DNA of 11,548 nucleotides from Oligoflexus sp. (lineage in GTDB: Bacteria; Bdellovibrionota_B; Oligoflexia; Oligoflexales; Oligoflexaceae), in NCBI GenBank assembly GCA_041736305.1, contig JBGSTX010000223.1, forward strand, positions 1 through 11,548. Reading direction: 5' to 3'. Made by a program: the position numbers and the translations under genes. Positions 191-11,548 of this stretch are shown here, in pieces; the first letter of the stretch is position 1; the number at the start of each line of letters is the position of its first letter. Below the pieces are notes generated by a model, which was given only the letters and a program-made list of their open reading frames with translations, ran no database searches and had not been told where the DNA came from.

Positions 191-1045
191 ATGAAGCTTC
201 GGTTTCTCGTCTATCTCTGGTTACTCATCACAGGGTTCCTGGCTCACCAATACATGGTTCTTCATGATCTCATCCCAGGTCCTGATTTCACTCAGCTCGT
301 CCTTTGCAAAAAGTTTAAGCTCTGCGACTACGGCTCGCCCGCTCCCGGCCGGCCTCTCAGCTACGCTCTCGGTTGGTTGGGTTTCAGTGTGATGGCGCTG
401 ACCAATGTCTACATTCTAAGAAAGAAAATGCTTTCCCTGCAGAAGCTAGGCAATCTGCAGTCTTGGTTGAACTGGCACATTTTCTTTGGAATGTTGGGTC
501 CGACCTTTATCGTCTTTCACTGCGATTTTAAGGTGGGAGGCATCGTCAGCATCAGCTTCTGGAGTATGATCGTTTCCTTCAGTTCGGGGATCATCGGACG
601 CTACTTCTATATGCAGCTGCTGCAAGGCAAAGGCCTGCTGAAGCGAGAGATCGAAGTCCTAGAGTCGAGCTTTGACAAGTACATGCAGGCGTCGGGCCAG
701 AGGATACAGCCGCAGGCTTTACTAGCCGCTAAGGCCTATGCCTTCATGATGGTCGGGGGTGGGCCTGGGGGCACAGTCCGTGGGAAGAGTATCTTAGGAT
801 TCCTCTACTTCTCGACCTTAGGCAGCGTCCGTAGCAGTTTTCAGCTACCTCCGACTCCCTGGCCTGAAGGACGACCCTTCCGCTTGAAGTTGAAAGAGTG
901 GGCTCTCTTGAGAAAACGGCTTATTTCGATGCATTACTTTCAAATGCTCTTCGGTTACTGGCGCACCTTCCATACGCCTTTTGCCGTCTGGATGTATATA
1001 GTTGCTGTAATTCACATCATTTCATCCCTCATTTTCAAAGTATAG
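191..1045 (+). CDS. Inner-membrane protein, probable diheme cytochrome b (ferric-reductase-like transmembrane domain)
   Basis: Several hydrophobic helices. Two carry His pairs 14 residues apart: WLNWH96IFFGMLGPTFIVFH110 and WRTFH261TPFAVWMYIVAVIH275. The gene sits in a multiheme cytochrome cluster. Confidence 0.75.
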   Translation: MKLRFLVYLWLLITGFLAHQYMVLHDLIPGPDFTQLVLCKKFKLCDYGSPAPGRPLSYALGWLGFSVMALTNVYILRKKMLSLQKLGNLQSWLNWHIFFGMLGPTFIVFHCDFKVGGIVSISFWSMIVSFSSGIIGRYFYMQLLQGKGLLKREIEVLESSFDKYMQASGQRIQPQALLAAKAYAFMMVGGGPGGTVRGKSILGFLYFSTLGSVRSSFQLPPTPWPEGRPFRLKLKEWALLRKRLISMHYFQMLFGYWRTFHTPFAVWMYIVAVIHIISSLIFKV

Positions 1046-1146: not shown

Positions 1147-2499
1147 ATGCTCATGAAAATCTATTATTTAATTTCTCAATCGACCTGGCTTTTCGGGCTG
1201 GGATTTCTCATATTTCTTGCCTGGTACGGAACCCGGAAGCGCACCACTCATTTGATCGAAGCGCAAAAGCAGTGGGATGACGCCGTCGCCAAGAAAATGC
1301 ATGAGCCGCTGTCCTTACATCCAGAAATTGATCCGACTCTTTGCGGTGGCTGCGGGGCCTGCGTAGCAGCTTGCCCAGAAGGTGAGATCATCAAACTGAT
1401 CAATCATCGGGCCGTCCTCGTTGAGCCGGGCAAGTGCGTAGGTCACGGGCAGTGCGAGACAGCTTGCCCATACGATGCGATTCAACTGGTTTTTGGGACT
1501 AAAACGCGCGGTATGGAACTGCCCAGGATCGATGGAAATTTTCAGACCAATGTGCCGGGTCTCTATATCTCTGGCGAACTCGGCGGCATGGGCCTCATAA
1601 TCAACGCCGTGAAGCAGGGTCGCCTCGCTGCCGAACATGCAGCGAAGACAGTCAATCCAGGCGTGCAGGCTCAGTTCGATGTGCTAGTCGTCGGTGCAGG
1701 ACCTGCCGGTCTTTCCGCGGCATTGGCCTGCGCGGCAGCGAAACTGAAATACGTCTGCATCGAGCAAAATAAGTTCGGTGGTACCATCTATAACTTCCCA
1801 AAGCAAAAAGTGGTTATGTCCCAGCCTCTTGAATTCGCTTTGATGGGTCGCTTTAAATTCAGTAAAAATAAAGTCTCTAAGGAAGAGCTGCTCGGACTCT
1901 GGGGTCACGTTCGTCAGAAGGCTGGACTGTCCGTCAAAGAAGAGTGCCGCTTCATTAATCTGCAGAAAAAAGGCAGTATTTTTGAAGTTGAGACATCACT
2001 CGGAACCATGACCGCGCAGAAGGTGATTCTAGCCATGGGCGTGAGAGGCACACCGCGTAAGCTCGGGCTTAAAAATGAAGAGCTGAGCAAGGTCACCTAC
2101 AATTTGCTCGACCCCGAGCAGTATCAGCAGCGCTGGATAGCCGTCGTTGGTGGCGGTAACGCTGGGGTAGAGGCCGCTCAGTATCTATGTAAGGTAGACC
2201 TTCGCAATAGGGTCTTCCTCTTGGTCCGCGGGCCGACTTTCGATCGCTGCAATCAGGAAAACCAGGATATTATTTTCGACTATCAAAAGAAGGGATTGGT
2301 CACGATCTGCTTCAATTCTTCCATAGAAGAGATTCACACTGACCATCTTATAGTCAAAAAAGACGATCAACTTTTGCGCTTGCAAAACGACTTTGTCTTC
2401 ATATTTGCAGGAGCCATCATGCCCTTCGCGTTTTTGAAGAGCATAGGAGTCATGATCGAGACGAAATTCGGTGAAGCTGTTAAAAAAGCTAGCAGCTAA
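1147..2499 (+). CDS. Membrane-anchored 4Fe-4S dicluster / FAD-dependent NAD(P)H oxidoreductase (TrxR/FNR-like fold, circularly permuted)
   Basis: N-terminal TM helix (WLFGLGFLIFLAWYG followed by TRKR); ferredoxin motifs CGGCGACVAACP and CVGHGQCETACP; FAD motif DVLVVGAGPAG; NAD(P)H motif VVGGGNAG...LLVRG; motif TNVPGLYISGE. The start is uncertain (GTG 1120, ATG 1147 or ATG 1153). Confidence 0.88.
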   Translation: MLMKIYYLISQSTWLFGLGFLIFLAWYGTRKRTTHLIEAQKQWDDAVAKKMHEPLSLHPEIDPTLCGGCGACVAACPEGEIIKLINHRAVLVEPGKCVGHGQCETACPYDAIQLVFGTKTRGMELPRIDGNFQTNVPGLYISGELGGMGLIINAVKQGRLAAEHAAKTVNPGVQAQFDVLVVGAGPAGLSAALACAAAKLKYVCIEQNKFGGTIYNFPKQKVVMSQPLEFALMGRFKFSKNKVSKEELLGLWGHVRQKAGLSVKEECRFINLQKKGSIFEVETSLGTMTAQKVILAMGVRGTPRKLGLKNEELSKVTYNLLDPEQYQQRWIAVVGGGNAGVEAAQYLCKVDLRNRVFLLVRGPTFDRCNQENQDIIFDYQKKGLVTICFNSSIEEIHTDHLIVKKDDQLLRLQNDFVFIFAGAIMPFAFLKSIGVMIETKFGEAVKKASS

Positions 2500-2510
2500 G
2501 GGGAATACAC

Positions 2511-2936
2511 TTGCAAAAGCCGCGTTCTACTATCGGGCTCTTCGTCCTGCTTCTGCTCTTCCTAGAAGCTTGCGGAGGCAATACACCAGGTGTTACCACG
2601 CAGGCTTTCAAAGACCCCAGCACCCACGACCATGCGCTCTTCACCCAGCCCTGCTCCGCTTGCCATGAATATCGACGCTTGCCGCCGGCGCCCGAACTGA
2701 ACCTCGGGGCTCCGGTCTCAATACTCCATGGACTAGGTGGCAACTGCGCGGAAGCAGGCTGTCACGCCTATGCTAAAGCCGCTCCCGTCTGGAAACCGGT
2801 ATTTTTCAATCACACTCCTTATCCAAGCACCTGCTGGGGTTGCCACACTGTGACGGGTGAGAAGGCCACCCACGCGGCTCAAGGCGAATGCTCGGCTTGC
2901 CACTCCTTCCCCAAAGGTTGGAAAGGTTTGAAATAA
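2511..2936 (+). CDS. Tetraheme c-type cytochrome lipoprotein
   Basis: TTG start after AAGGGGA. Signal peptide with lipobox LEA-C21. Heme motifs CSACH, CAEAGCH (CX4CH), CWGCH and CSACH, with spare His residues available as distal ligands. Confidence 0.85.
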   Translation: MQKPRSTIGLFVLLLLFLEACGGNTPGVTTQAFKDPSTHDHALFTQPCSACHEYRRLPPAPELNLGAPVSILHGLGGNCAEAGCHAYAKAAPVWKPVFFNHTPYPSTCWGCHTVTGEKATHAAQGECSACHSFPKGWKGLK

Positions 2937-3060: not shown

Positions 3061-4431
3061 TTGAAGATAATTTCTTTAGCAATAGAGGCTTCATTCTGTC
3101 TTTGTATCTGCTTCTTTGCTTTTGCTTTTGCCGCTGAAAGAGCCGAAGCAGTGGTGTCGCGAGGGCAGGTCCGAGCTGGGTACTACTCGCGCGGCGTCGA
3201 GTTCAAAGAGCCAGTGGCCGGCGAGACCAAGAACGACGAGCGCGTGATCTCAACCCAAGCTAAATTGGATGTCTCGGATTTCAACTCAACCGACGACAAA
3301 TTCCTCCTGGACGTACGCGATAAATACGATAGCTATGGCAAGCTCGAGCGCCAGAACCTACAGCTGAGCTCTTATAATCGGGTTATATTACGTACTGCAG
3401 CTTATCAGCGACCTTGGGAAGCCAATCGCCTCTACTTCACCGTGGGGCGTTTCTCGCTGCCCGAAGCCAACGTCATGGCCCACGATGGCGTTGATTTTGG
3501 CTATCGCTATAGTAGGAGCACGCGCATCGGCCTCTTCGGAGGGCAAGGCCCCGAAGATGTGCTCACTCCTCTCTATGTGGATCCCAATACTACCCAAGTG
3601 AAAAACGCTCAGCTGGGTTCTTACGTGGCTTATGAGAAAAAAGATGGAGTGGAAGACAGCACCTACATGACGAATGCTCTGGCATTGGCGCCTAGTTACT
3701 ACATCACGGATGCCGATAGCCATACCTATTTCTACCATCAAACCATGATGACCTTTACGCCGACGCATCGCGTGATGGCGATCGTGCATCAGGACCTTTC
3801 GCCAGCATCGAGTCTGCGCCGAGCCTATGCCTCCTATACCTATTTTAGCGAACGCTACCGAGGCACAGCCGCTCTCCAGCAGACCAACACCGAAGATTAT
3901 CTCATCAAGCAAATCGTTCAAGATACACTAGCGCCGAGTGCGGTGCGCAGTCTCGATCTCGATTTCCGTCAGCGGCTCAGCCCAACTTTGTCTCTCGACT
4001 ACAGTGCTAGCTATGGGACCCGCTCGGTCGATGGCAAAACGCGCACCGAGCTCGCCTTCGGGGTTTTGCTACCTAAGCTTTTTCTCGATACCGGTTCGGC
4101 TAAAGCCCAGCTCGGGGTACGTAATAACTTTGTCAGCAACGATAAATTCCTACGGGTCGGCTACGATTACTGGAGCAAGTCCTTCGGCGGTGGCTTCTCT
4201 CATCTGATCGTCAACGAAGAATATGCTAGCGGCGAAAAGAACAACCGTCAGATCACAACTCTAGATGGCGGATTTTTTCTCAGCGAAGAAATTCGAGGCT
4301 CGGTCGGGCTGCAAAGAGAACAGGATAATTCGGTCAGCGCTAACGCCTTATTTTTGATGCTAGGCTACCGCTTCGGATCCGGCTCGGTGTCTAGCGTTCC
4401 CAGCAAAACCCCTCGCTTCGAGAGTATTTGA
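3061..4431 (+). CDS. Outer-membrane beta-barrel protein (putative porin of a porin-cytochrome complex)
   Basis: Signal peptide probably ending AEA. Many amphipathic strands with aromatic residues (LYFTVGRF, DGVDFGYRY, LSLDYSASYG, FLRVGYDYW, LFLMLGYRF). No heme motifs. It lies between two cytochrome genes. Confidence 0.8.
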   Translation: MKIISLAIEASFCLCICFFAFAFAAERAEAVVSRGQVRAGYYSRGVEFKEPVAGETKNDERVISTQAKLDVSDFNSTDDKFLLDVRDKYDSYGKLERQNLQLSSYNRVILRTAAYQRPWEANRLYFTVGRFSLPEANVMAHDGVDFGYRYSRSTRIGLFGGQGPEDVLTPLYVDPNTTQVKNAQLGSYVAYEKKDGVEDSTYMTNALALAPSYYITDADSHTYFYHQTMMTFTPTHRVMAIVHQDLSPASSLRRAYASYTYFSERYRGTAALQQTNTEDYLIKQIVQDTLAPSAVRSLDLDFRQRLSPTLSLDYSASYGTRSVDGKTRTELAFGVLLPKLFLDTGSAKAQLGVRNNFVSNDKFLRVGYDYWSKSFGGGFSHLIVNEEYASGEKNNRQITTLDGGFFLSEEIRGSVGLQREQDNSVSANALFLMLGYRFGSGSVSSVPSKTPRFESI

Positions 4432-7221
4432 TTGAGCAAGCTCCTGAGACGATTTTGGATTTATATTCTGCTTCTGCTGCCATTCATGGCAGCTGCTCAG
4501 AGCCAGAAGGGAAACTTCGAAGGCCTCCTGAATAAACTTCTCGCGCCCGGTCCACTTATTCTGGGTCATGAAAATCTCGAGCACAAAGACTGCCTCAAGT
4601 GCCACGAGCCCGGCGGTGGTATCCCGAACCAGCTCTGTTCAGACTGCCACAAAGAGATTAAAGCCCATGTGAACGAGAAAGACCACTTCCATGGTCTAAT
4701 GGACGGTAAACCCTGCATTGAATGTCACCAGGATCACAAGGGCCGGAGTTTTGATTCTCTCAAGTTCGACACGAAGAGTTTCGAGCACGATAAGACTGGC
4801 TTCGAATTAGATGGAGCGCACATTAAGGTCGAATGTGCGAAGTGCCATACCGACACCCGAAAATCAAAGCCGATTCGCCAGAACGAAACTCGATACTTCG
4901 GTACAGTGAACTCCTGTAATAAATGCCATGTGAAAGATGATATTCACTTCTTTGAAGACAAGTTCAAAGCTAAAGAGTGTAGCACGTGCCACAGTACTGT
5001 TTCATGGAAAGATGCGATTCGCTTCGATCACAAGAAAGAAACCGGCTACGAGCTGATAGGGGCTCATGCCAAGCATTCTTGCAACAAGTGCCATGTGAGT
5101 GAAGGCAAAGACAATATTAAATACACCTGGCCCAAGCTGAAGACGCAGCAGTGTCTCAGCTGCCACAAAGATCAGCACGGCGACAATATGAGTCCCAAAT
5201 TTCGCGGCGGCAACTGCACGAGCTGCCATAGCCAAGACGCTTGGAAAATCCCCGACTTTGACCACTCGATTACGAGCTTCAATCTGCGGGCGAAGCACGC
5301 GCAGGTGCAATGCGTCGACTGTCATAAGCAGGGGCCAGCTACAAGCGGCAAGGGCCCAGGCTTCTATCGCTGGCGTGGTCTGCAAAAAACTTGCAATAGC
5401 TGCCACGCCGACTACCATGGCTACGGGCGCGAGCAGAGCGCGAAACTGAATGGGCCCCTTCAGGCCTGCGAAACCTGTCACACTGATTTAGGCTGGAAGC
5501 TCGAACTCCGTTTTGATCACAACACCCAAGCCGATTTCCCTATCACCGGCAAACATCGCGAAAATGCCTGCTTCGACTGTCACAGGCCCCAGTCGAATGA
5601 TAAGAAAGCGGTAGTTCCGAACATACTTCGGCGCTATGAATTCCCAACGCTCGAAACGAAGACCTGCGAAACTTGTCATAAATCATCTCACAACGCGGCC
5701 TTTCATAAAAAATTCAAAGGTGTCCCCTGCTCGCAGTGTCATACGACTGAAGGCTGGAAGCTGTCTTCTATGCAAACGCAGATGACGACGGACCGGGCCT
5801 TTCACGATAAGACTCGTTTCCCTCTGACGGGCGAGCATAAAGTGCAGCCTTGTAAAGACTGCCATATGCGCGATGGCAAAGAGAATTTCAAGTTCCCCAA
5901 CGCCGAGAAGAATTTCTGCGTCAACTGCCATGTTTCCGTGCATAAGAAGCAATTTAGCGAAAAGACTCAGGAGCAGCCCTGCTCCAAGTGTCACAGCACG
6001 AATAATTTTACCCAGCGGCTGCCTTTCGACCACGGCGCAACCACGGGATTTAAGATCACCGGAAAACACCAGAAATTTGAAAATCAGTGCGTGAAGTGCC
6101 ATGAGCCGACCAAGGAAAAGTTAGCGACTAAACCACCAAAAGTCATGCATCAGTTCAATTTTGATGAGCGAAAGGATCCCAATTTCTGCTCCTTCTGCCA
6201 CGTGACGGTTCACAAAGATCAGTTCAACCCCGCGACGCAGAAGCGCTCCTGCGGCGACTGTCATAATACCTCAGGCTTCCAGAAGCTCTCAGAGTTCGAT
6301 CATGATCAAACGCGCTTCAAGCTTACCGGGGCCCATGAGGACATCGGCAAGGATTGCAAGCAGTGTCACAAGCCAGGTGACATCACCTTGCCGACGAAGC
6401 CACCGCGGAAGGGTCATACCTTCATGTTTGAAGGGCAGAACCGCGGCTTCTGTGAAGAGTGCCATACCAACGAGCATAAGGATATGTTCCGCAAGGAATT
6501 CTCGAGTAGGCCTTGCGTGAGCTGTCACACGACGGAAACTTTTCAGAAACGCAAAGAATTCAATCACGAGGAGACCTCGTTTGAAATCAAAGGCAAGCAC
6601 AAGCAGGTGAAATGCGTTGAATGCCACAAGCCAACGCCGGCTCGCTACAAGCAGGAGCCACAAAATAGAAAGGGCGACTATCAGTTCCCGGAATTTAAGA
6701 CCAAAAACTGCATGACTTGCCATCGCGATGTCCACAACGGGTCGAACGGCTCTAACTGTAAAAAATGCCATAACGAAAGCGGCTGGAAATCAACGGGAGA
6801 CTATCACAAGGACTTTCTCCTCGAAGGGGTGCATCTCCAGATCGATTGCAAAGAATGCCATGTGAATGACCGCATCCTGCACGGATCGAGTCGGGAGTGC
6901 AGTCTCTGCCACGCGAAGGAAGATCCGCATAACGGACAGCTACTTCCCTGTCAGGAATGTCATACACAGAATTTCTGGAACCAGACAACTTTCGACCATA
7001 ATGTAACGAGATTCCCGCTGTGGGGAGCCCATCGGATCACCGATTGCCGCGCTTGTCATAATCAGGGTGTCTATCAGGGTCTGCCGACAGAGTGCCGTAG
7101 TTGTCATCTGCGAGATGCGGCGGGCGTCACGTCTCCTGATCATTCCCTGCCTAATTATTTTCGCTGTGAGCAGTGTCACACGCAGTATAACTTCCCGGGA
7201 GCTACACCTGGTCTCCCTTGA
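4432..7221 (+). CDS. Secreted/periplasmic multiheme cytochrome c, 33 CxxCH motifs
   Basis: Signal peptide (AAA-Q). I counted 33 CxxCH motifs by hand, from CLKCH (4591) to CEQCH (ends 7179). The TTG start immediately follows the porin stop codon. Confidence 0.96.
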   Translation: MSKLLRRFWIYILLLLPFMAAAQSQKGNFEGLLNKLLAPGPLILGHENLEHKDCLKCHEPGGGIPNQLCSDCHKEIKAHVNEKDHFHGLMDGKPCIECHQDHKGRSFDSLKFDTKSFEHDKTGFELDGAHIKVECAKCHTDTRKSKPIRQNETRYFGTVNSCNKCHVKDDIHFFEDKFKAKECSTCHSTVSWKDAIRFDHKKETGYELIGAHAKHSCNKCHVSEGKDNIKYTWPKLKTQQCLSCHKDQHGDNMSPKFRGGNCTSCHSQDAWKIPDFDHSITSFNLRAKHAQVQCVDCHKQGPATSGKGPGFYRWRGLQKTCNSCHADYHGYGREQSAKLNGPLQACETCHTDLGWKLELRFDHNTQADFPITGKHRENACFDCHRPQSNDKKAVVPNILRRYEFPTLETKTCETCHKSSHNAAFHKKFKGVPCSQCHTTEGWKLSSMQTQMTTDRAFHDKTRFPLTGEHKVQPCKDCHMRDGKENFKFPNAEKNFCVNCHVSVHKKQFSEKTQEQPCSKCHSTNNFTQRLPFDHGATTGFKITGKHQKFENQCVKCHEPTKEKLATKPPKVMHQFNFDERKDPNFCSFCHVTVHKDQFNPATQKRSCGDCHNTSGFQKLSEFDHDQTRFKLTGAHEDIGKDCKQCHKPGDITLPTKPPRKGHTFMFEGQNRGFCEECHTNEHKDMFRKEFSSRPCVSCHTTETFQKRKEFNHEETSFEIKGKHKQVKCVECHKPTPARYKQEPQNRKGDYQFPEFKTKNCMTCHRDVHNGSNGSNCKKCHNESGWKSTGDYHKDFLLEGVHLQIDCKECHVNDRILHGSSRECSLCHAKEDPHNGQLLPCQECHTQNFWNQTTFDHNVTRFPLWGAHRITDCRACHNQGVYQGLPTECRSCHLRDAAGVTSPDHSLPNYFRCEQCHTQYNFPGATPGLP
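4780..7179 (+). repeat. Ten tandem triheme protein modules (about 65-95 aa each) following an N-terminal triheme unit
   Basis: Recurring pattern F(D/E/N)H-x2-3-T-x-F-x-(L/I)-x-G-x-H...CxxCH...CxxCH-x3-4-H...CxxCH-x4-(W/F), with some degeneracy. Confidence 0.9.
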
Positions 7222-7242
7222 CTCGTGATCAGGGCTTTTCTT
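7216..7242 (+). terminator. Weak possible intrinsic terminator overlapping the cytochrome stop codon
   Basis: CCTTGA (7216-7221) pairs with TCAGGG (7229-7234) in a 6-bp stem with one G-U pair, followed by CTTTTCTT. Confidence 0.25.
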
Positions 7243-7289
7243 CGGCTGCAGATTCTGCGACGATAAGCAGCTTCAGCTGGAGGAAGCTT

Positions 7290-8192
7290 ATGAGCGTAGT
7301 TCTGCAGCAATTGACCGAACTTCTCAATCTTGACGCCATTGAGACCAATGTTTTTCTCGGCAAGAGTCAGGACCTAGGATTCGGCTCACTCTTTGGTGGC
7401 CAAGTCCTTGGCCAAGCATTAGTAGCCGCCGGGCGCACCGTCGAGCCTTCCCGCTCTTGTCATTCGCTTCACGGCTACTTTTTACGTGCTGGCAGTCCCT
7501 CTGAGCCTATCTACTACGAGGTCGACTTAATTCGTAGTGGCAAAAGCTTCTCGACTCGTCGCGTCGTCGCGAAACAGAGAGGCCTTGCTATCTTCAGCAT
7601 GTCCAGTTCATTTCAGGTCTTGGAGAAGGGTTACGAGCATCAAAGTGCGATGCCCATCGTCCCCCGACCGGAAACTCTCACTTCTGAACTTGAAATGGCT
7701 CGCCAGCATCGTGACAAGATTCCCTCTGCTGTACGCGAAAAGATGACCGCCGATCGCGCGATCGATATCAGACCCGTTGAGAGCGGCGACCCCTTTGCAC
7801 CCAGCCCAAGGCCAGCTCTTAAACATAGTTGGCTGCGAGCGATTGCAAGGATAGCTGACGATCCTATCTTGCATCAGGCTATGCTCGCTTATGCTTCCGA
7901 CTTTGGGCTGGCATCGACCTCACTCCTGCCCCACGGTGTGACCTTCTTTCAGTATTCAACCCAGGTGGCAAGTCTCGATCACAGTATGTGGTTTCACCGA
8001 CCCTTTCGCATAGATGAATGGCTGCTTTATACGAAGGATAGTCCGACGGCAAACGGAGCGCGCGGCTTCAATCGTGGGCAAATATTTAGCGAAAATGGGG
8101 ACCTCGTGGTATCGGTAGCGCAGGAGGCGTTGGTCCGGCGCTTGCGGCCTAAAACCGATGCGCCCGACAAGACCGGGGGTTTGGTCAACTGA
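7290..8192 (+). CDS. tesB: Acyl-CoA thioesterase II
   Basis: Motifs LFGGQVLGQALVAA, HSLHGYFLRAG, GKSFSTRRVVA, LAYASD, ASLDHSMWFHRPF and VAQEAL. GGAGG (7279-7283) precedes ATG 7290, which fits better than the TTG at 7218. Confidence 0.95.
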   Translation: MSVVLQQLTELLNLDAIETNVFLGKSQDLGFGSLFGGQVLGQALVAAGRTVEPSRSCHSLHGYFLRAGSPSEPIYYEVDLIRSGKSFSTRRVVAKQRGLAIFSMSSSFQVLEKGYEHQSAMPIVPRPETLTSELEMARQHRDKIPSAVREKMTADRAIDIRPVESGDPFAPSPRPALKHSWLRAIARIADDPILHQAMLAYASDFGLASTSLLPHGVTFFQYSTQVASLDHSMWFHRPFRIDEWLLYTKDSPTANGARGFNRGQIFSENGDLVVSVAQEALVRRLRPKTDAPDKTGGLVN

Positions 8193-8198
8193 TGAGAC

Positions 8199-9398
8199 CT
8201 ACGCGGCGAGAATTTTCCAGATTTCTCCTGGATGCTCAGGGTTTTCAATAAAGAGAGCCGCCTGCCCATCGGTGTCGGTAGCGACGAAGGCTCCTTCATA
8301 GTGCGGAAGCACGATCGTCCCTCTATCGGTATGCAATTCGATCTCACCCATGATCGCGATCGAATCCATGAAGTGGGGGCGTGGACTGGCATTGTCCTGC
8401 CAGTGGCTTTCCTCTGGCTGCGGGCCGGCTGACGCTACGAAAGTTCGCAGTATTTCCAGCTGCTGTTCCATCAGTCGCAACTGCTGTTCCATAATTCTTG
8501 TAATATCGGGCGAAGCTGGCATGGTGCGCGGCTGGCCAGCACTCATGGGGGGTTCTCCTTCGGAAGCTTGATGGGGTGCAAGCAAGAGTTCGCTTTCTAC
8601 CCAAGATTTTACAGTGTCGAGGAACTTCTGGCGGTCATCGAGCATCGTGAACAAGTGGTCGGTTTGGGGCCAGCGGAGAACCCGGATCGCCGGTCCGAAT
8701 TTCTGGGCGCCCAGCATCGCCGTAAACTGCTTTATGTGGGAAAAGTAGGCCGCAAAGCCTCCCGTGTAGATCACCAGCATTTTAATGCCCCGAGCCAGCA
8801 TTTGGTTCAGCCCCTCTCTGACCTCTTCGGGGGAAGGATAATTAGGCTCGAAGTAATCCCGCACTGATTCCAAAGACTCGCTCATGTCGCGCCTGAACGT
8901 GTGTTTTATACGGCGCAGCCAGCGCTGCAGACTGCTCACTCGTCGGAAGAAATAAAGGACGCGATGCGCAAGAGTAGGGTAAACGAAGGAGTCGACCATC
9001 ACGATACCCTTTATGCGAGCGTCGCTGCGGGCATAATAATAAGCGTCGACGGCACTCGAGCAGAGTCCGATAAGAAGTACGCGCGTAATACCATAGTCGC
9101 GAGCTAGTACTTCGAGAGCATCAGCGATGTCCAGGTTGCTTCTGTCCTGTATCGCGATCTTTTCACCGCTGTCATCGCTATCGCCGAGCCGAGAAAGATC
9201 AAAGCGTAGAGTCGTGACCCCTATGCTGGCTAGCGATTCGGCGACTTCTACATTGGCGCGAAAGGGTCCACAACGGTTTGAAATGCCCGTATTCCAAAGC
9301 AATGCACCGAGATTCGCCTTCTGACCTTCTCGTCCTTTTTCATGAACGACGCCGATAAGATGATCTTGGCGGCCAAAACGAAGGGCGCGCTTTTGCAT
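8199..9398 (-). CDS. Alpha/beta-hydrolase-fold protein (exosortase-system hydrolase-1-like) with a C-terminal extension of about 125 aa
   Basis: Motifs LRFDLSRLGDS, nucleophile elbow IGLCSSA and His motif TDHLFT. GGAGGG (9412-9407) lies upstream of the ATG. Confidence 0.85.
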   Translation of the reverse strand: MQKRALRFGRQDHLIGVVHEKGREGQKANLGALLWNTGISNRCGPFRANVEVAESLASIGVTTLRFDLSRLGDSDDSGEKIAIQDRSNLDIADALEVLARDYGITRVLLIGLCSSAVDAYYYARSDARIKGIVMVDSFVYPTLAHRVLYFFRRVSSLQRWLRRIKHTFRRDMSESLESVRDYFEPNYPSPEEVREGLNQMLARGIKMLVIYTGGFAAYFSHIKQFTAMLGAQKFGPAIRVLRWPQTDHLFTMLDDRQKFLDTVKSWVESELLLAPHQASEGEPPMSAGQPRTMPASPDITRIMEQQLRLMEQQLEILRTFVASAGPQPEESHWQDNASPRPHFMDSIAIMGEIELHTDRGTIVLPHYEGAFVATDTDGQAALFIENPEHPGEIWKILAA

Positions 9399-9402
9399 TT
9401 TT

Positions 9403-10197
9403 TTAGCCCTCCATCATGTTTTTTATGAGGCGAAGATGCTTGCTCGGAAAAGCTCTTCGCTTGACGAAGCGGTCGTCGAGCCAGTGCATGGCTTCTTCGA
9501 CCAGGTGCTCGCTTAATTTTACCTGCGTCGCCTGGCTTGAACGCAGCTGCTCGGCGAGTTCTGGGGTTCTAGTCTCGCTCGTTAGCAGGTGTATTTTCCT
9601 ACAGCTGACCTGAGTGTCGCTAAGCTTGATGGCAGCGATTTCCTGCTTGAATGCTGCAGAAAGGGGAAAGCCCCAGCATTGGTCCGGGCGCTGCGTGCTT
9701 TGTGCAAACGGGGGTTCGAGGGGATCGCGACGGAGCATGAGCTGGTGCGAGCTTTCGAGCTCTTTGAGATAAGCAGCTCCGTCAGTCAAAGGGTCCCAGA
9801 GTACAAGTAGCTGCGGTCCGATTTTGCCGCTCGCTCGCATAGCAAGAGTGGCTCCAAGGCGGGTGCCGAAGAGAGAAACCTGTGTAAAACCCGTTTTTTC
9901 CTTGAGCGCATTCGCAGCAGCGCAGATGTCTGCTTCCCACAGTTTTAAGGAAGCTTCGGCGCTAGCTCCATCCGAATCTCCCGTAGCTGTATAGTCAAAG
10001 CGAAGCACGGCATAGCCTAGCTCAGCCAGTTCTCGTCCAAGCTGCACATGAGTTTGATAGCTGCGCATCATTTCCTGCGGTGCCGGATAGCAGATAACGA
10101 TAGCTTCCTTGCGCTGCTGAGTCTCGGGTGCTTGAAAGAGGCCGAAGAGCGCCCGCTCGGCCGATGGGAAGTAGAAAGGCTCCGTGCGTCGTGTCAT
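9403..10197 (-). CDS. Alpha/beta-hydrolase-fold protein (exosortase-system hydrolase-2-like), probably non-catalytic
   Basis: Motifs LRFDYTATGDSDG, elbow FGTRLGA (Arg at the nucleophile position) and LVLWDP. ATGA overlap with the NRPS stop (10194-10197). Confidence 0.85.
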   Translation of the reverse strand: MTRRTEPFYFPSAERALFGLFQAPETQQRKEAIVICYPAPQEMMRSYQTHVQLGRELAELGYAVLRFDYTATGDSDGASAEASLKLWEADICAAANALKEKTGFTQVSLFGTRLGATLAMRASGKIGPQLLVLWDPLTDGAAYLKELESSHQLMLRRDPLEPPFAQSTQRPDQCWGFPLSAAFKQEIAAIKLSDTQVSCRKIHLLTSETRTPELAEQLRSSQATQVKLSEHLVEEAMHWLDDRFVKRRAFPSKHLRLIKNMMEG

Positions 10198-11548
10198 CGC
10201 CTATCTCCTGGGCTGCGGGCTAGAGGCTGCTCTGGGACATACAGAGCCGCGAGTTGAGCAAGACTGAGCAGGAGGAGATCCCGAATCTTCAGATTCATCG
10301 CAAGCTCTTCCTGACAGCGATGCAGTACTTTGATGGCTAAGAGAGAGTGACCACCAAGGTCAAAAAAGTTATCGCTTGCCTTGACGCTTTTCAAATCGAG
10401 CAGTTCGCAGAAAATAGCAGCGATTTTGCATTCAAGCGGATTGAGCCTCTCGACGATAGCCAGAGGCTGCACTTCTTGCCGTACGCTGAAGGGAGAAGGA
10501 AGAGCTTTGCTATCAACTTTTCCACTGCCCGTGAGAGGGAAACTATCGAGGACCAGCAAGTGCTGCGGTAGCATGTAGCGCGGCAATGAATGAGAAAGAT
10601 GCTGAGAGATAGCCGCCAAATCGAGTTTCTGAGCAGGCTTGAGGACGGCATAGGCGACGAGACGCTGGTCGCCTGGACTCAGCTCGCGCACCAGGCACAC
10701 GGCTTGCTGCACAGCGCTATGGGTCATCATAGAGGATTCAATTTCGCCGAGTTCAATGCGGAAGCCTCGCAGCTTAACTTGCTTATCGCGGCGACTGATA
10801 TATTCCAGTCGACCATCAGCTCGCAGACGTGCAAGGTCACCAGTGTCGTACATGAGGGCTTCAGCCTGGAAAGGATGCGGGATAAAACGATCACTGGTAA
10901 GATCAGGACGGCCCCGATAACCGCGTGCAAGAGCCGGACCTGCAAGATAGAGCTGCCCTATAGCACCTTGCGGAAGAGCCTGGCCCCGCGCATCGAGGAT
11001 ATAAGCTTCATAGGAAGGCAGCACGCTGCCTATACAGATAGGAGCTTCGGGATCGACGATGTGCTCGGCTGTGGCCCAGACTGTCGCTTCGGTAGGTCCG
11101 TAAACGTTCCAGAGCTGTCCCACGCGCGGAATAAGTTCACGTGCAAGATCGCGGCTGAGCGCTTCCCCACCGCTCAGTGCCCAGAGCGAACTCTTCCCTT
11201 GCCAACCACTAGCGAGGAGCAGTCGCCAGGTGGCGGGCGTCGCCTGCAGAAGATCGATAGCTTCCGACTGCAGAGCTTCGCTGATGTAAGCACCGTCGGT
11301 GATTCGCTCCGCTTCGACGAGAACTACTGTACCTGAGAGAGTGAGAGTCGAAAATATTTCGAGAACAGAGATGTCAAAAGAAATAGTCGTGATCGCGAGA
11401 GTCCGCAGACCTATGGGAAAAGCCAATTTTTCGCGGATGGCCTGCAAAAAGTAGACGGCAGCCCGATGCGAGATCTCCACACCCTTCGGTTTGCCGGTCG
11501 AACCAGAGGTGTAGATGATGTAGGCGAGATCTGCAGGATCAGGGCCTT
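10194..11548 (-). CDS. NRPS C-terminal module, 5'-truncated: adenylation domain (Gly predicted) plus terminal peptidyl carrier protein
   Basis: The frame stays open past 11480 to the edge and includes A3 LAYIIYTSGSTGKPKGV. Also FDIS, NVYGPTE, YDTGDL, QVKLRGFRIELGEIE and GSGKVD. PCP motif DNFFDLGGHSLLA. The gene stops with no TE or reductase domain. Confidence 0.95.
   Translation of the reverse strand, partial: GPDPADLAYIIYTSGSTGKPKGVEISHRAAVYFLQAIREKLAFPIGLRTLAITTISFDISVLEIFSTLTLSGTVVLVEAERITDGAYISEALQSEAIDLLQATPATWRLLLASGWQGKSSLWALSGGEALSRDLARELIPRVGQLWNVYGPTEATVWATAEHIVDPEAPICIGSVLPSYEAYILDARGQALPQGAIGQLYLAGPALARGYRGRPDLTSDRFIPHPFQAEALMYDTGDLARLRADGRLEYISRRDKQVKLRGFRIELGEIESSMMTHSAVQQAVCLVRELSPGDQRLVAYAVLKPAQKLDLAAISQHLSHSLPRYMLPQHLLVLDSFPLTGSGKVDSKALPSPFSVRQEVQPLAIVERLNPLECKIAAIFCELLDLKSVKASDNFFDLGGHSLLAIKVLHRCQEELAMNLKIRDLLLLSLAQLAALYVPEQPLARSPGDRR

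Follow-up and report, generated by a model that had tools for sequence, protein, structure and literature searches.

What does a flavoprotein with its parts in an unfamiliar order do among genes for multihaem cytochromes, and is that order real? These questions were raised by a contig of Oligoflexus sp. (JBGSTX010000223.1, assembly GCA_041736305.1), whose whole stretch of 11,548 nucleotides is called the window here, and in which the flavoprotein gene occupies positions 1147 to 2499. Few enzyme folds have been studied as thoroughly as the two-dinucleotide-binding-domain fold of the thioredoxin, glutathione and ferredoxin reductases, and a naturally permuted, family-wide version of such a fold was not mentioned in the literature searched. 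At the level of sequence, a true circular permutation of this fold was confirmed in the flavoprotein, and the protein appears to serve, so far unrecognised, on the cytoplasmic NAD(P)H side of a widespread wire of multihaem cytochromes that spans the cell envelope.

The start codon was placed at ATG 1147, on which the database copies and the homologues agree; GTG 1120, the first in the open reading frame, is an alternative. Residue numbers refer to the resulting form of 450 residues, and those marked “query” to the 459-residue reading from GTG 1120. The gene was present as a single copy in its own genome. Its product runs from a membrane anchor through a ferredoxin domain with two [4Fe-4S] clusters and a strand-motif-helix piece to the FAD and NAD(P)H domains, with the following features.

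1147-2499, forward strand: open reading frame of the flavoprotein, 450 residues, stop codon at 2497-2499, matched in Pfam by Fer4 and Pyr_redox_3/2
1162-1230, forward strand: N-terminal transmembrane anchor, a hydrophobic stretch at residues 6-28, followed by RKR
1342-1377, forward strand: cluster motif 1, CxxCxxCxxxCP, residues 66-77, matched by Fer4 families
1435-1470, forward strand: cluster motif 2, CxxHxxCxxxCP, residues 97-108, with His replacing the expected second Cys
1495-1656, forward strand: transposed segment, residues 117-170, made of a strand, the TNVPGLYISGE motif and a helix, and corresponding to the final ~50 residues of the collinear TrxR/YpdA enzymes
1546-1599, forward strand: core motif TNVPGLYISGELGGMGLI, a GD-type FAD motif with Glu, from the sequence and the family alignment
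1693-1710, forward strand: GAGPAG, the first dinucleotide (FAD) motif, aligning with YpdA from residue 5 onward, that is, with the start of collinear enzymes
2020-2049, forward strand: strand KVILAMGVRG, residues 292-301, pairing with the strand of the transposed motif in the model
2089-2112, forward strand: KVTYNLLD, at the position of the redox CxxC of thioredoxin reductase (TrxR) and lacking Cys, aligned to GISYCSVCDA of 3f8p
2149-2232, forward strand: second dinucleotide (NAD(P)H) site, GGGNAG...LLVRG, matched by PF00070 Pyr_redox at residues 340-408 of the 459-residue reading
2392-2496, forward strand: last strands, FVFIFAGA...IETKFGE, and the new C-terminus, the chain stopping at a point that corresponds to YpdA residue 274 of 326

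A preliminary description, made from the sequence alone, had begun the feature at 1546 and thereby left out the first 133 residues, which hold the anchor and the two-cluster ferredoxin domain. Its placing of TNVPGLYISGELGGMGLIINAVKQGRLAA from 1546, ahead of GAGPAG at 1693-1710, was borne out, as was the early end of the chain, the stop lying 17 residues past ...FLKSIG. The motif, for which it had cited the family form ending in G-D, ends here in G-E. The N-terminal fusion to a ferredoxin proposed there is real, with two [4Fe-4S] clusters; the membrane anchor, the invariant Glu in place of Asp, the CxxHxxCxxxCP motif and the gene context were absent from it.

The permuted order was apparent in the alignment to the Sulfolobus TrxR 3f8p, where a collinear course was looked for, as the finding that the preliminary description had named as contrary to its proposal. 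The alignment was non-collinear and fell into three swapped pieces: query 136-178 corresponded to chain residues 270-316, query 177-218 to 9-48 and query 281-448 to 95-265. Chain residue 316 thus abuts residue 9 at query 177-178, the old C- and N-termini being joined by ~9 residues, and the C-terminus of the protein falls four residues short of the point at which the early piece picks up. The body (query 186-451) matched collinear families from their beginnings and fell short of their ends: positions 1-251 of 291 in Pfam Pyr_redox_2, 2-246 of 300 in the thioredoxin reductase model TIGR01292, 1-265 of 316 in the YpdA model TIGR04018 (E 1.4e-42) and residues 5-274 of 326 in the YpdA structure 7a76 (E 3.3e-24).

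The early piece, searched alone as 61 residues, supplied the complementary ends. At E<=10, 21 of its 22 matches in the PDB fell on the late FAD motif, the best being 7jyp at 298-340 of 343 (E 3.5e-4); the remaining match, to adiponectin, was set aside as chance. Pfam Pyr_redox_2 was matched at positions 258-291 of 291 (E 0.1), and all nine NCBIfam families found were matched at the late FAD motif, including TIGR01292 at 258-299 of 300. A 27-member family profile of the same piece gave 14 PDB matches, every one to the late FAD motif (best E 0.014). Both pieces therefore match one collinear family in swapped order, and the permutation of a CxxC-less TrxR/YpdA-type fold claimed in the preliminary description is real. 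The old termini are joined, the new termini lie inside the old chain and the moved piece has no second copy, which is the arrangement that defines a circular permutant. Duplication intermediates, with the motif at both ends, were not found by regular expression in any of 270 family proteins.

Since the window is the whole of an 11.5-kb contig from a draft genome of 392 contigs, the order might be thought an artefact, either of misassembly or of a frameshift joining the tail and head of two flavoprotein genes. The same order was seen, as one uninterrupted match, in every one of the 80 loci fetched, which came from independent assemblies. By regular expression, the motif stood only before GxGxxG in 238 of the 270 family proteins and after it in none, the remaining 32 having failed one of the two strict expressions. 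An artefact was refuted by these counts, and its probability is negligible.

The family in which this order recurs is large. All homologues among the 120 matches listed were 405-473 residues long, with 54-100% identity, and a profile search returned 994 representatives at E<=1e-30. A pattern scan of species-representative genomes gave at least 601 matches, and 594 of the 601 among those listed encode a relative. The 80 kept loci came from Bdellovibrionota, Myxococcota, Alpha-, Beta- and Gammaproteobacteria, Bacteroidota, Ignavibacteria, Calditrichota, Nitrospirota, Gemmatimonadota and others. Residues 134-151 formed the most conserved stretch of the family, with 14 of 18 positions invariant among 24 sequences of 54-84% identity. 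The FAD motif ended in G-E in all 245 matches of the regular expression and never in G-D; in the window, this pair (G143-E144) lies at 1573-1578. In one relative, P0174, an FHA domain was inserted between the moved helix and GxGxxG, that is, at the joined old termini. The permuted arrangement is thus fixed in a large family.

The seat of the moved piece was also examined in predicted structures. In the full-length AlphaFold2 model, this piece formed a strand (139-141) and a helix (151-168), with block values of the predicted local distance difference test (pLDDT) of 90, 58, 81 and 93 over residues 131-170. When the model was compared by Foldseek and VIA-align, YpdA/Bdr ranked first (Z 21.4, root mean square deviation 6.0, 266 aligned residues), followed by thioredoxin reductases, AhpF and TrxR-like ferredoxin-NADP+ reductases (FNRs), the TrxR/FNR folds reaching Z 17-19. 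In 49 of 50 rows of the structural alignment, the model from 172-177 to ~442 covered target residues ~1 to 250-290, out of 300-330. Both programs align sequentially, so these figures describe the body only and the moved piece cannot be placed by them.

For this reason the placing of the moved piece is taken from a split-chain complex prediction, in which residues 171-450, residues 117-170 and FAD were supplied separately, in three runs and three controls. A score of 0.84 was obtained in each of the three runs and 0.00 in the best control; in the calibration, which included no ligand, 58 of 80 solved complexes came up to the mark, as did 2 of 110 mismatched pairs. The runs shared at least 89% of their contacts, with a partner pLDDT of at least 81. 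The lowest-error contacts set strand 138-141 on residues 292-295 (KVIL), the moved helix lay on residues 185-195, in the helix after GxGxxG, and residues 122-127, at the start of the transposed segment, lay on the C-terminal hairpin 425-441. These positions are what we take to be the usual seat of the motif strand and helix in collinear enzymes. In this prediction, the moved piece sits in the FAD domain, in likeness to TrxR-fold structures, and the failure of the early segment to complete this domain, which the preliminary description had named as a possible objection, was not what the prediction gave.

Which enzyme class the protein belongs to was less readily read from the databases, where its names are generic and its cluster is called “Ferredoxin--NADP reductase family protein.” GAGPAG, GGGNAG and TNVPGLYISGE, the last with Glu for Asp and in its permuted position, are features of the two-dinucleotide-binding-domain fold. 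None of the NCBIfam models reached its own cutoff: TIGR01292 gave 77 bits against a cutoff of 343.45, with TY-NLL at the CxxC position, and TIGR04018 gave 145.7 bits against 339.9, with a GAGPAG motif and collinearity only over positions 1-265 of 316. The absence of Cys at the CxxC position, noted in the preliminary description, holds in the 3f8p alignment (KVTY-NLLD), and so does the kinship that it drew to the CxxC-less branches, the closest solved relatives being YpdA/Bdr and TrxR-like FNRs. In YumC-type FNRs, a C-terminal extension after the motif helix covers the flavin. The present protein has no FNR-type C-terminal subdomain: its chain stops earlier, at a point corresponding to residue ~265-291 of such enzymes, and the transposed helix runs straight into GxGxxG.

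As TIGR04018 (E 1.4e-42) and 7a76 (E 3.3e-24) are the best family and structure matches, the protein might be a low-molecular-weight disulfide reductase like YpdA/Bdr with an accessory Fe-S domain. Firmicute YpdA carries the motif GGGPCG, with Cys14, and is NADPH-dependent, according to the portion of the YpdA structure preprint that was available. Here Ala stands at the position of Cys14 and there is no CxxC, the TIGR04018 score falls far below its cutoff, and an anchor, an Fe-S domain and a cytochrome context do not suit a thiol reductase; this function is very unlikely. The GGGNAG...LLVRG region aligns to GGKNSS...VLYRG of YpdA, and a preference for NADPH is plausible from the match of LLVRG to VLYRG in that NADPH-dependent enzyme, which is a hint only.

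The genes around the flavoprotein offered a further line of evidence. Those between 191 and 7221 are co-directional and closely packed, and the rest of the window follows them.

191-1045, forward strand: membrane protein of 284 residues, of the type called IMP in PCC3 gene clusters, without a Pfam match and recognised by its sequence motifs
2511-2936, forward strand: small lipoprotein-like cytochrome c, with three CxxCH sites, one Cx4CH site and a lipobox-like signal ...LEAC
3061-4431, forward strand: outer-membrane barrel candidate of 456 residues, without a Pfam match, with a signal helix and 22 beta-strands in its AlphaFold2 model
4432-7221, forward strand: multihaem cytochrome c of 929 residues, with 33 CxxCH by motif count
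8199-9398 and 9403-10197, reverse strand: two alpha/beta-hydrolase-like genes, unrelated to the flavoprotein
10194-11546, reverse strand: gene for a nonribosomal peptide synthetase-like adenylation domain and carrier protein, cut by the contig end and unrelated to the flavoprotein

The product of 191-1045 bears W-x3-H-x13-H twice (residues 92-110 and 257-275) and SGxxG at residue 132. Its histidines H96, H110, H261 and H275, which form two H-x13-H pairs, were kept in 95-100% of 61 homologues, and from these motifs it is probably a dihaem-b transmembrane relay. The 456-residue protein was modelled by AlphaFold2 from an alignment of 8, with a pLDDT of 75.3 and a predicted template modelling score (pTM) of 0.67; judged by this model, it is probably an outer-membrane barrel for the neighbouring cytochromes. 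The gene for the 33-haem cytochrome starts directly after the stop of the barrel gene, and its end overlaps by 4 bases with a gene at 7218-8192 for a TesB-like acyl-CoA thioesterase. In Oligoflexus tunisiensis (L001), the thioesterase gene lies farther off and on the opposite strand, and the thioesterase is therefore probably outside the cytochrome/flavoprotein system.

Across the 80 loci, an IMP homologue was found in 61, and 62 had a cytochrome carrying 8 or more CxxCH. With the count confined to the 36 loci flanked by 5 kb or more on each side, the IMP homologue was present in 34 and the cytochrome with at least 8 haems in 35. Furthermore, the flavoprotein and IMP were naturally fused in 40 of 150 representatives (P0140, P0149, P0138, P0167 and 36 others), IMP being C-terminal in 36 of these and N-terminal in 4. 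Other architectures (P0128, P0204, P0247, P0174, P0139, P0141) included a C-terminal cytochrome c3/c7 domain, long Pro-rich/TPR tails, and a combination of two FHA domains, a multihaem region and the flavoprotein. In all six proteins with fused or other architectures that were scanned, the Pyr_redox_2 match ended at 240-254 of 291.

The same linkage bears on the possibility that the protein is a membrane-tethered ferredoxin:NAD(P)+ oxidoreductase that works by itself on cytoplasmic acceptors, with the cytochrome neighbours incidental. TrxR-like FNRs are among the closest solved folds, and the automatic cluster name is that of a ferredoxin-NADP reductase, as this explanation would have it. Three observations speak against incidental neighbours and make such a stand-alone role improbable: the linkage, kept across phyla in 34-35 of 36 well-flanked loci; the 40 fusions with the four-His membrane protein among 150 representatives; and the fusion of others to cytochrome c domains. 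On linkage, cutoffs and conservation of order, the thiol reductase, the stand-alone FNR and the assembly artefact were all rejected.

The interpretation that we favour, and regard as reasonably probable, is that of a membrane-anchored, permuted Fe-S flavoprotein that acts as the NAD(P)H-side module feeding the IMP haems and the cytochrome chain. The preliminary description had proposed a ferredoxin-NADP+ reductase fused to its own ferredoxin; the fusion stood, and what it missed was the membrane anchor and the likely relay to the dihaem-b protein and the cytochromes, to which synteny and natural fusions point. The flavoprotein would be cytoplasmic and held on the inner membrane by its one N-terminal helix. 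The anchor region was modelled as a long helix (2-48), and by the positive-inside rule its orientation would be N-out/C-in. This agrees with both fusion orders beside a partner with five transmembrane segments, each of which would topologically fit a cytoplasmic flavoprotein with an out-to-in anchor.

NAD(P)H would reduce the FAD, whose electrons would travel by way of the two [4Fe-4S] clusters to the b haem on the cytoplasmic side of the partner membrane protein, in which two b haems would be stacked. From there they would reach the periplasmic lipoprotein cytochrome and, through the 22-strand barrel, the 33-haem cytochrome, the whole route forming a quinone-independent, NOX-like electron outlet. 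In the two cluster motifs, C66, C69, C72, C76 and P77, and C97, H100, C103, C107 and P108, were invariant among 24 aligned sequences. The CxxHxxCxxxCP cluster may be His-ligated or otherwise atypical and lie at the exit towards the membrane partner; His-ligated clusters are often found where electrons leave a protein, [NiFe] hydrogenases being an example, which is taken here as a lead only. The permutation would give the FAD domain a new N-terminus for the anchor and the ferredoxin domain and leave the Rossmann core undisturbed. It may also bring the clusters close to the flavin, as the preliminary description had suggested.

Several points weigh against this interpretation. The matches of the early segment were individually weak (best E 3.5e-4 with one sequence as query, 0.014 with the profile and 0.1 in Pfam) because the piece is short, so that the case for permutation rests on the unanimity of those matches and on the complementary position ranges. 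The full-length AlphaFold2 model was of only moderate quality (pLDDT 77, pTM 0.53), and the outcome of the split-chain prediction may reflect what the predictor had learned from solved structures of TrxR fold. The invariant Glu in place of Asp could affect FAD binding. No partner membrane protein was seen in the DNA examined of 19 of the 80 loci, most of which were short or cut contigs. Which cofactors the family carries, which nucleotide it prefers and which way its electrons flow are all inferred. Finally, PCC3 has been treated in print as an inward route, being described from Fe(II) oxidisers and discussed as a candidate iron oxidase in the available text of PMC5566968, PMC10734462 and PMC12442390.

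These publications, together with the reversibility in principle of flavoproteins of TrxR fold, lend themselves to a reading in which the same permuted enzyme and partners carry electrons inward, from Fe(II)-type donors through the cytochromes and the membrane protein to the clusters and NAD(P)+. On standard bioenergetics, Fe(II) electrons are far more positive than the NAD(P)+/NAD(P)H couple and the inside-negative membrane potential would oppose their entry. In a Pfam scan of the neighbours, no coupling subunit was visible in the gene cluster, and the family is common in heterotroph lineages (Bdellovibrionota, Bacteroidota, Myxococcota). Outward flow was favoured because the inward course from Fe(II)-level donors would be uphill, against the inside-negative potential and with no coupling subunit visible; inward flow is accordingly considered unlikely.

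The export of electrons can be stated more widely, although with less assurance: as a tentative proposal, the permuted flavoprotein and its four-His partner would form a quinone-independent, NOX-like machine exporting NAD(P)H electrons into PCC3-type haem wires in hundreds of species from many phyla. If this is true, PCC3 would be an electron outlet, for extracellular reduction or redox balancing, and not an inlet for Fe(II) oxidation, and circular permutation would be the innovation that wired a TrxR-fold enzyme, via an N-terminal anchor and an Fe-S domain, to a membrane haem relay. A candidate answer would also be at hand for an open question, the cytoplasmic-side connection of PCC3 haem conduits, which in the literature is taken to be the quinone pool. 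Both the gene fusions and the conservation of linkage suggest NAD(P)H in its stead. Such a link, if true, would alter what is expected of the conduits, in direction and in physiological role, in iron-cycling and many other bacteria.

The literature search, with subscription-only papers outside it, found no description of a permuted TrxR-type flavoprotein or of a PCC3-linked flavoprotein, and a search on Oligoflexus electron transfer found nothing relevant. The words flavoprotein, ferredoxin and 4Fe-4S had no occurrences in the main text and 7 supplementary files of PMC5566968, and the available text of PMC10734462 and PMC12442390 listed PCC3 as four genes, without a flavoprotein.

Compared with known enzymes, the FAD and NAD(P)H body of the protein is closest to YpdA/Bdr (TIGR04018; PDB 7A76, 7A7B, 7APR), both in sequence and in fold. 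Neither protein has a CxxC, and the YRG/VRG regions of the NADPH site align. YpdA, however, is collinear, soluble and without an Fe-S domain, whereas here the last ~50 residues have moved to the front, Cys14 of Firmicute YpdA is replaced by Ala and the motif Asp by Glu. With low-molecular-weight TrxR (TIGR01292; 1TDE, 3F8P) and TrxR-like FNRs (3LZW, 6GAR, 5YGQ), the protein has in common the two-dinucleotide-binding-domain fold, and its early segment aligns with their C-terminal motif and helix. It differs from both in its permuted order, in the ferredoxin fused in cis and in the membrane anchor, and from TrxR in lacking the redox CxxC. As the TrxR-like FNRs do, it probably carries electrons between NAD(P)H on one side and an Fe-S protein on the other.

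The likeness to PCC3 lies in gene content. The PCC3 IMP has been described with five transmembrane segments, two W-x3-H-x13-H motifs and SGxxG, and likened to the NOX/FRE ferric reductase domain, a quinone-linked cytochrome b being proposed, in the available text of He, Barco, Emerson and Roden (2017; PMC5566968). The product of 191-1045 bears these published motifs. PCC3 clusters comprise a porin with one extracellular and one large periplasmic multihaem cytochrome. In the window, a barrel candidate with 22 strands in its model adjoins a cytochrome of 33 haems, against a published median of 34 for the extracellular one, and the small lipoprotein cytochrome with four sites stands in the place of a published periplasmic one of ~21 haems (PMC5566968, same text). 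A link to the quinone pool is proposed in that paper; the window has a flavoprotein with a ferredoxin domain.

The resemblance to NOX/FRE would be one of plan: cytoplasmic NAD(P)H would pass electrons to a flavin and on to two b haems, held across the membrane by two H-x13-H pairs. The flavoprotein folds are unrelated, being of TrxR type here and of FNR type there, and two Fe-S clusters are interposed here. The parts are encoded by separate genes in the window and fused in 40 of the 150 representatives, and the acceptor here would be a cytochrome c chain, as against O2 or Fe(III) chelates in NOX/FRE.

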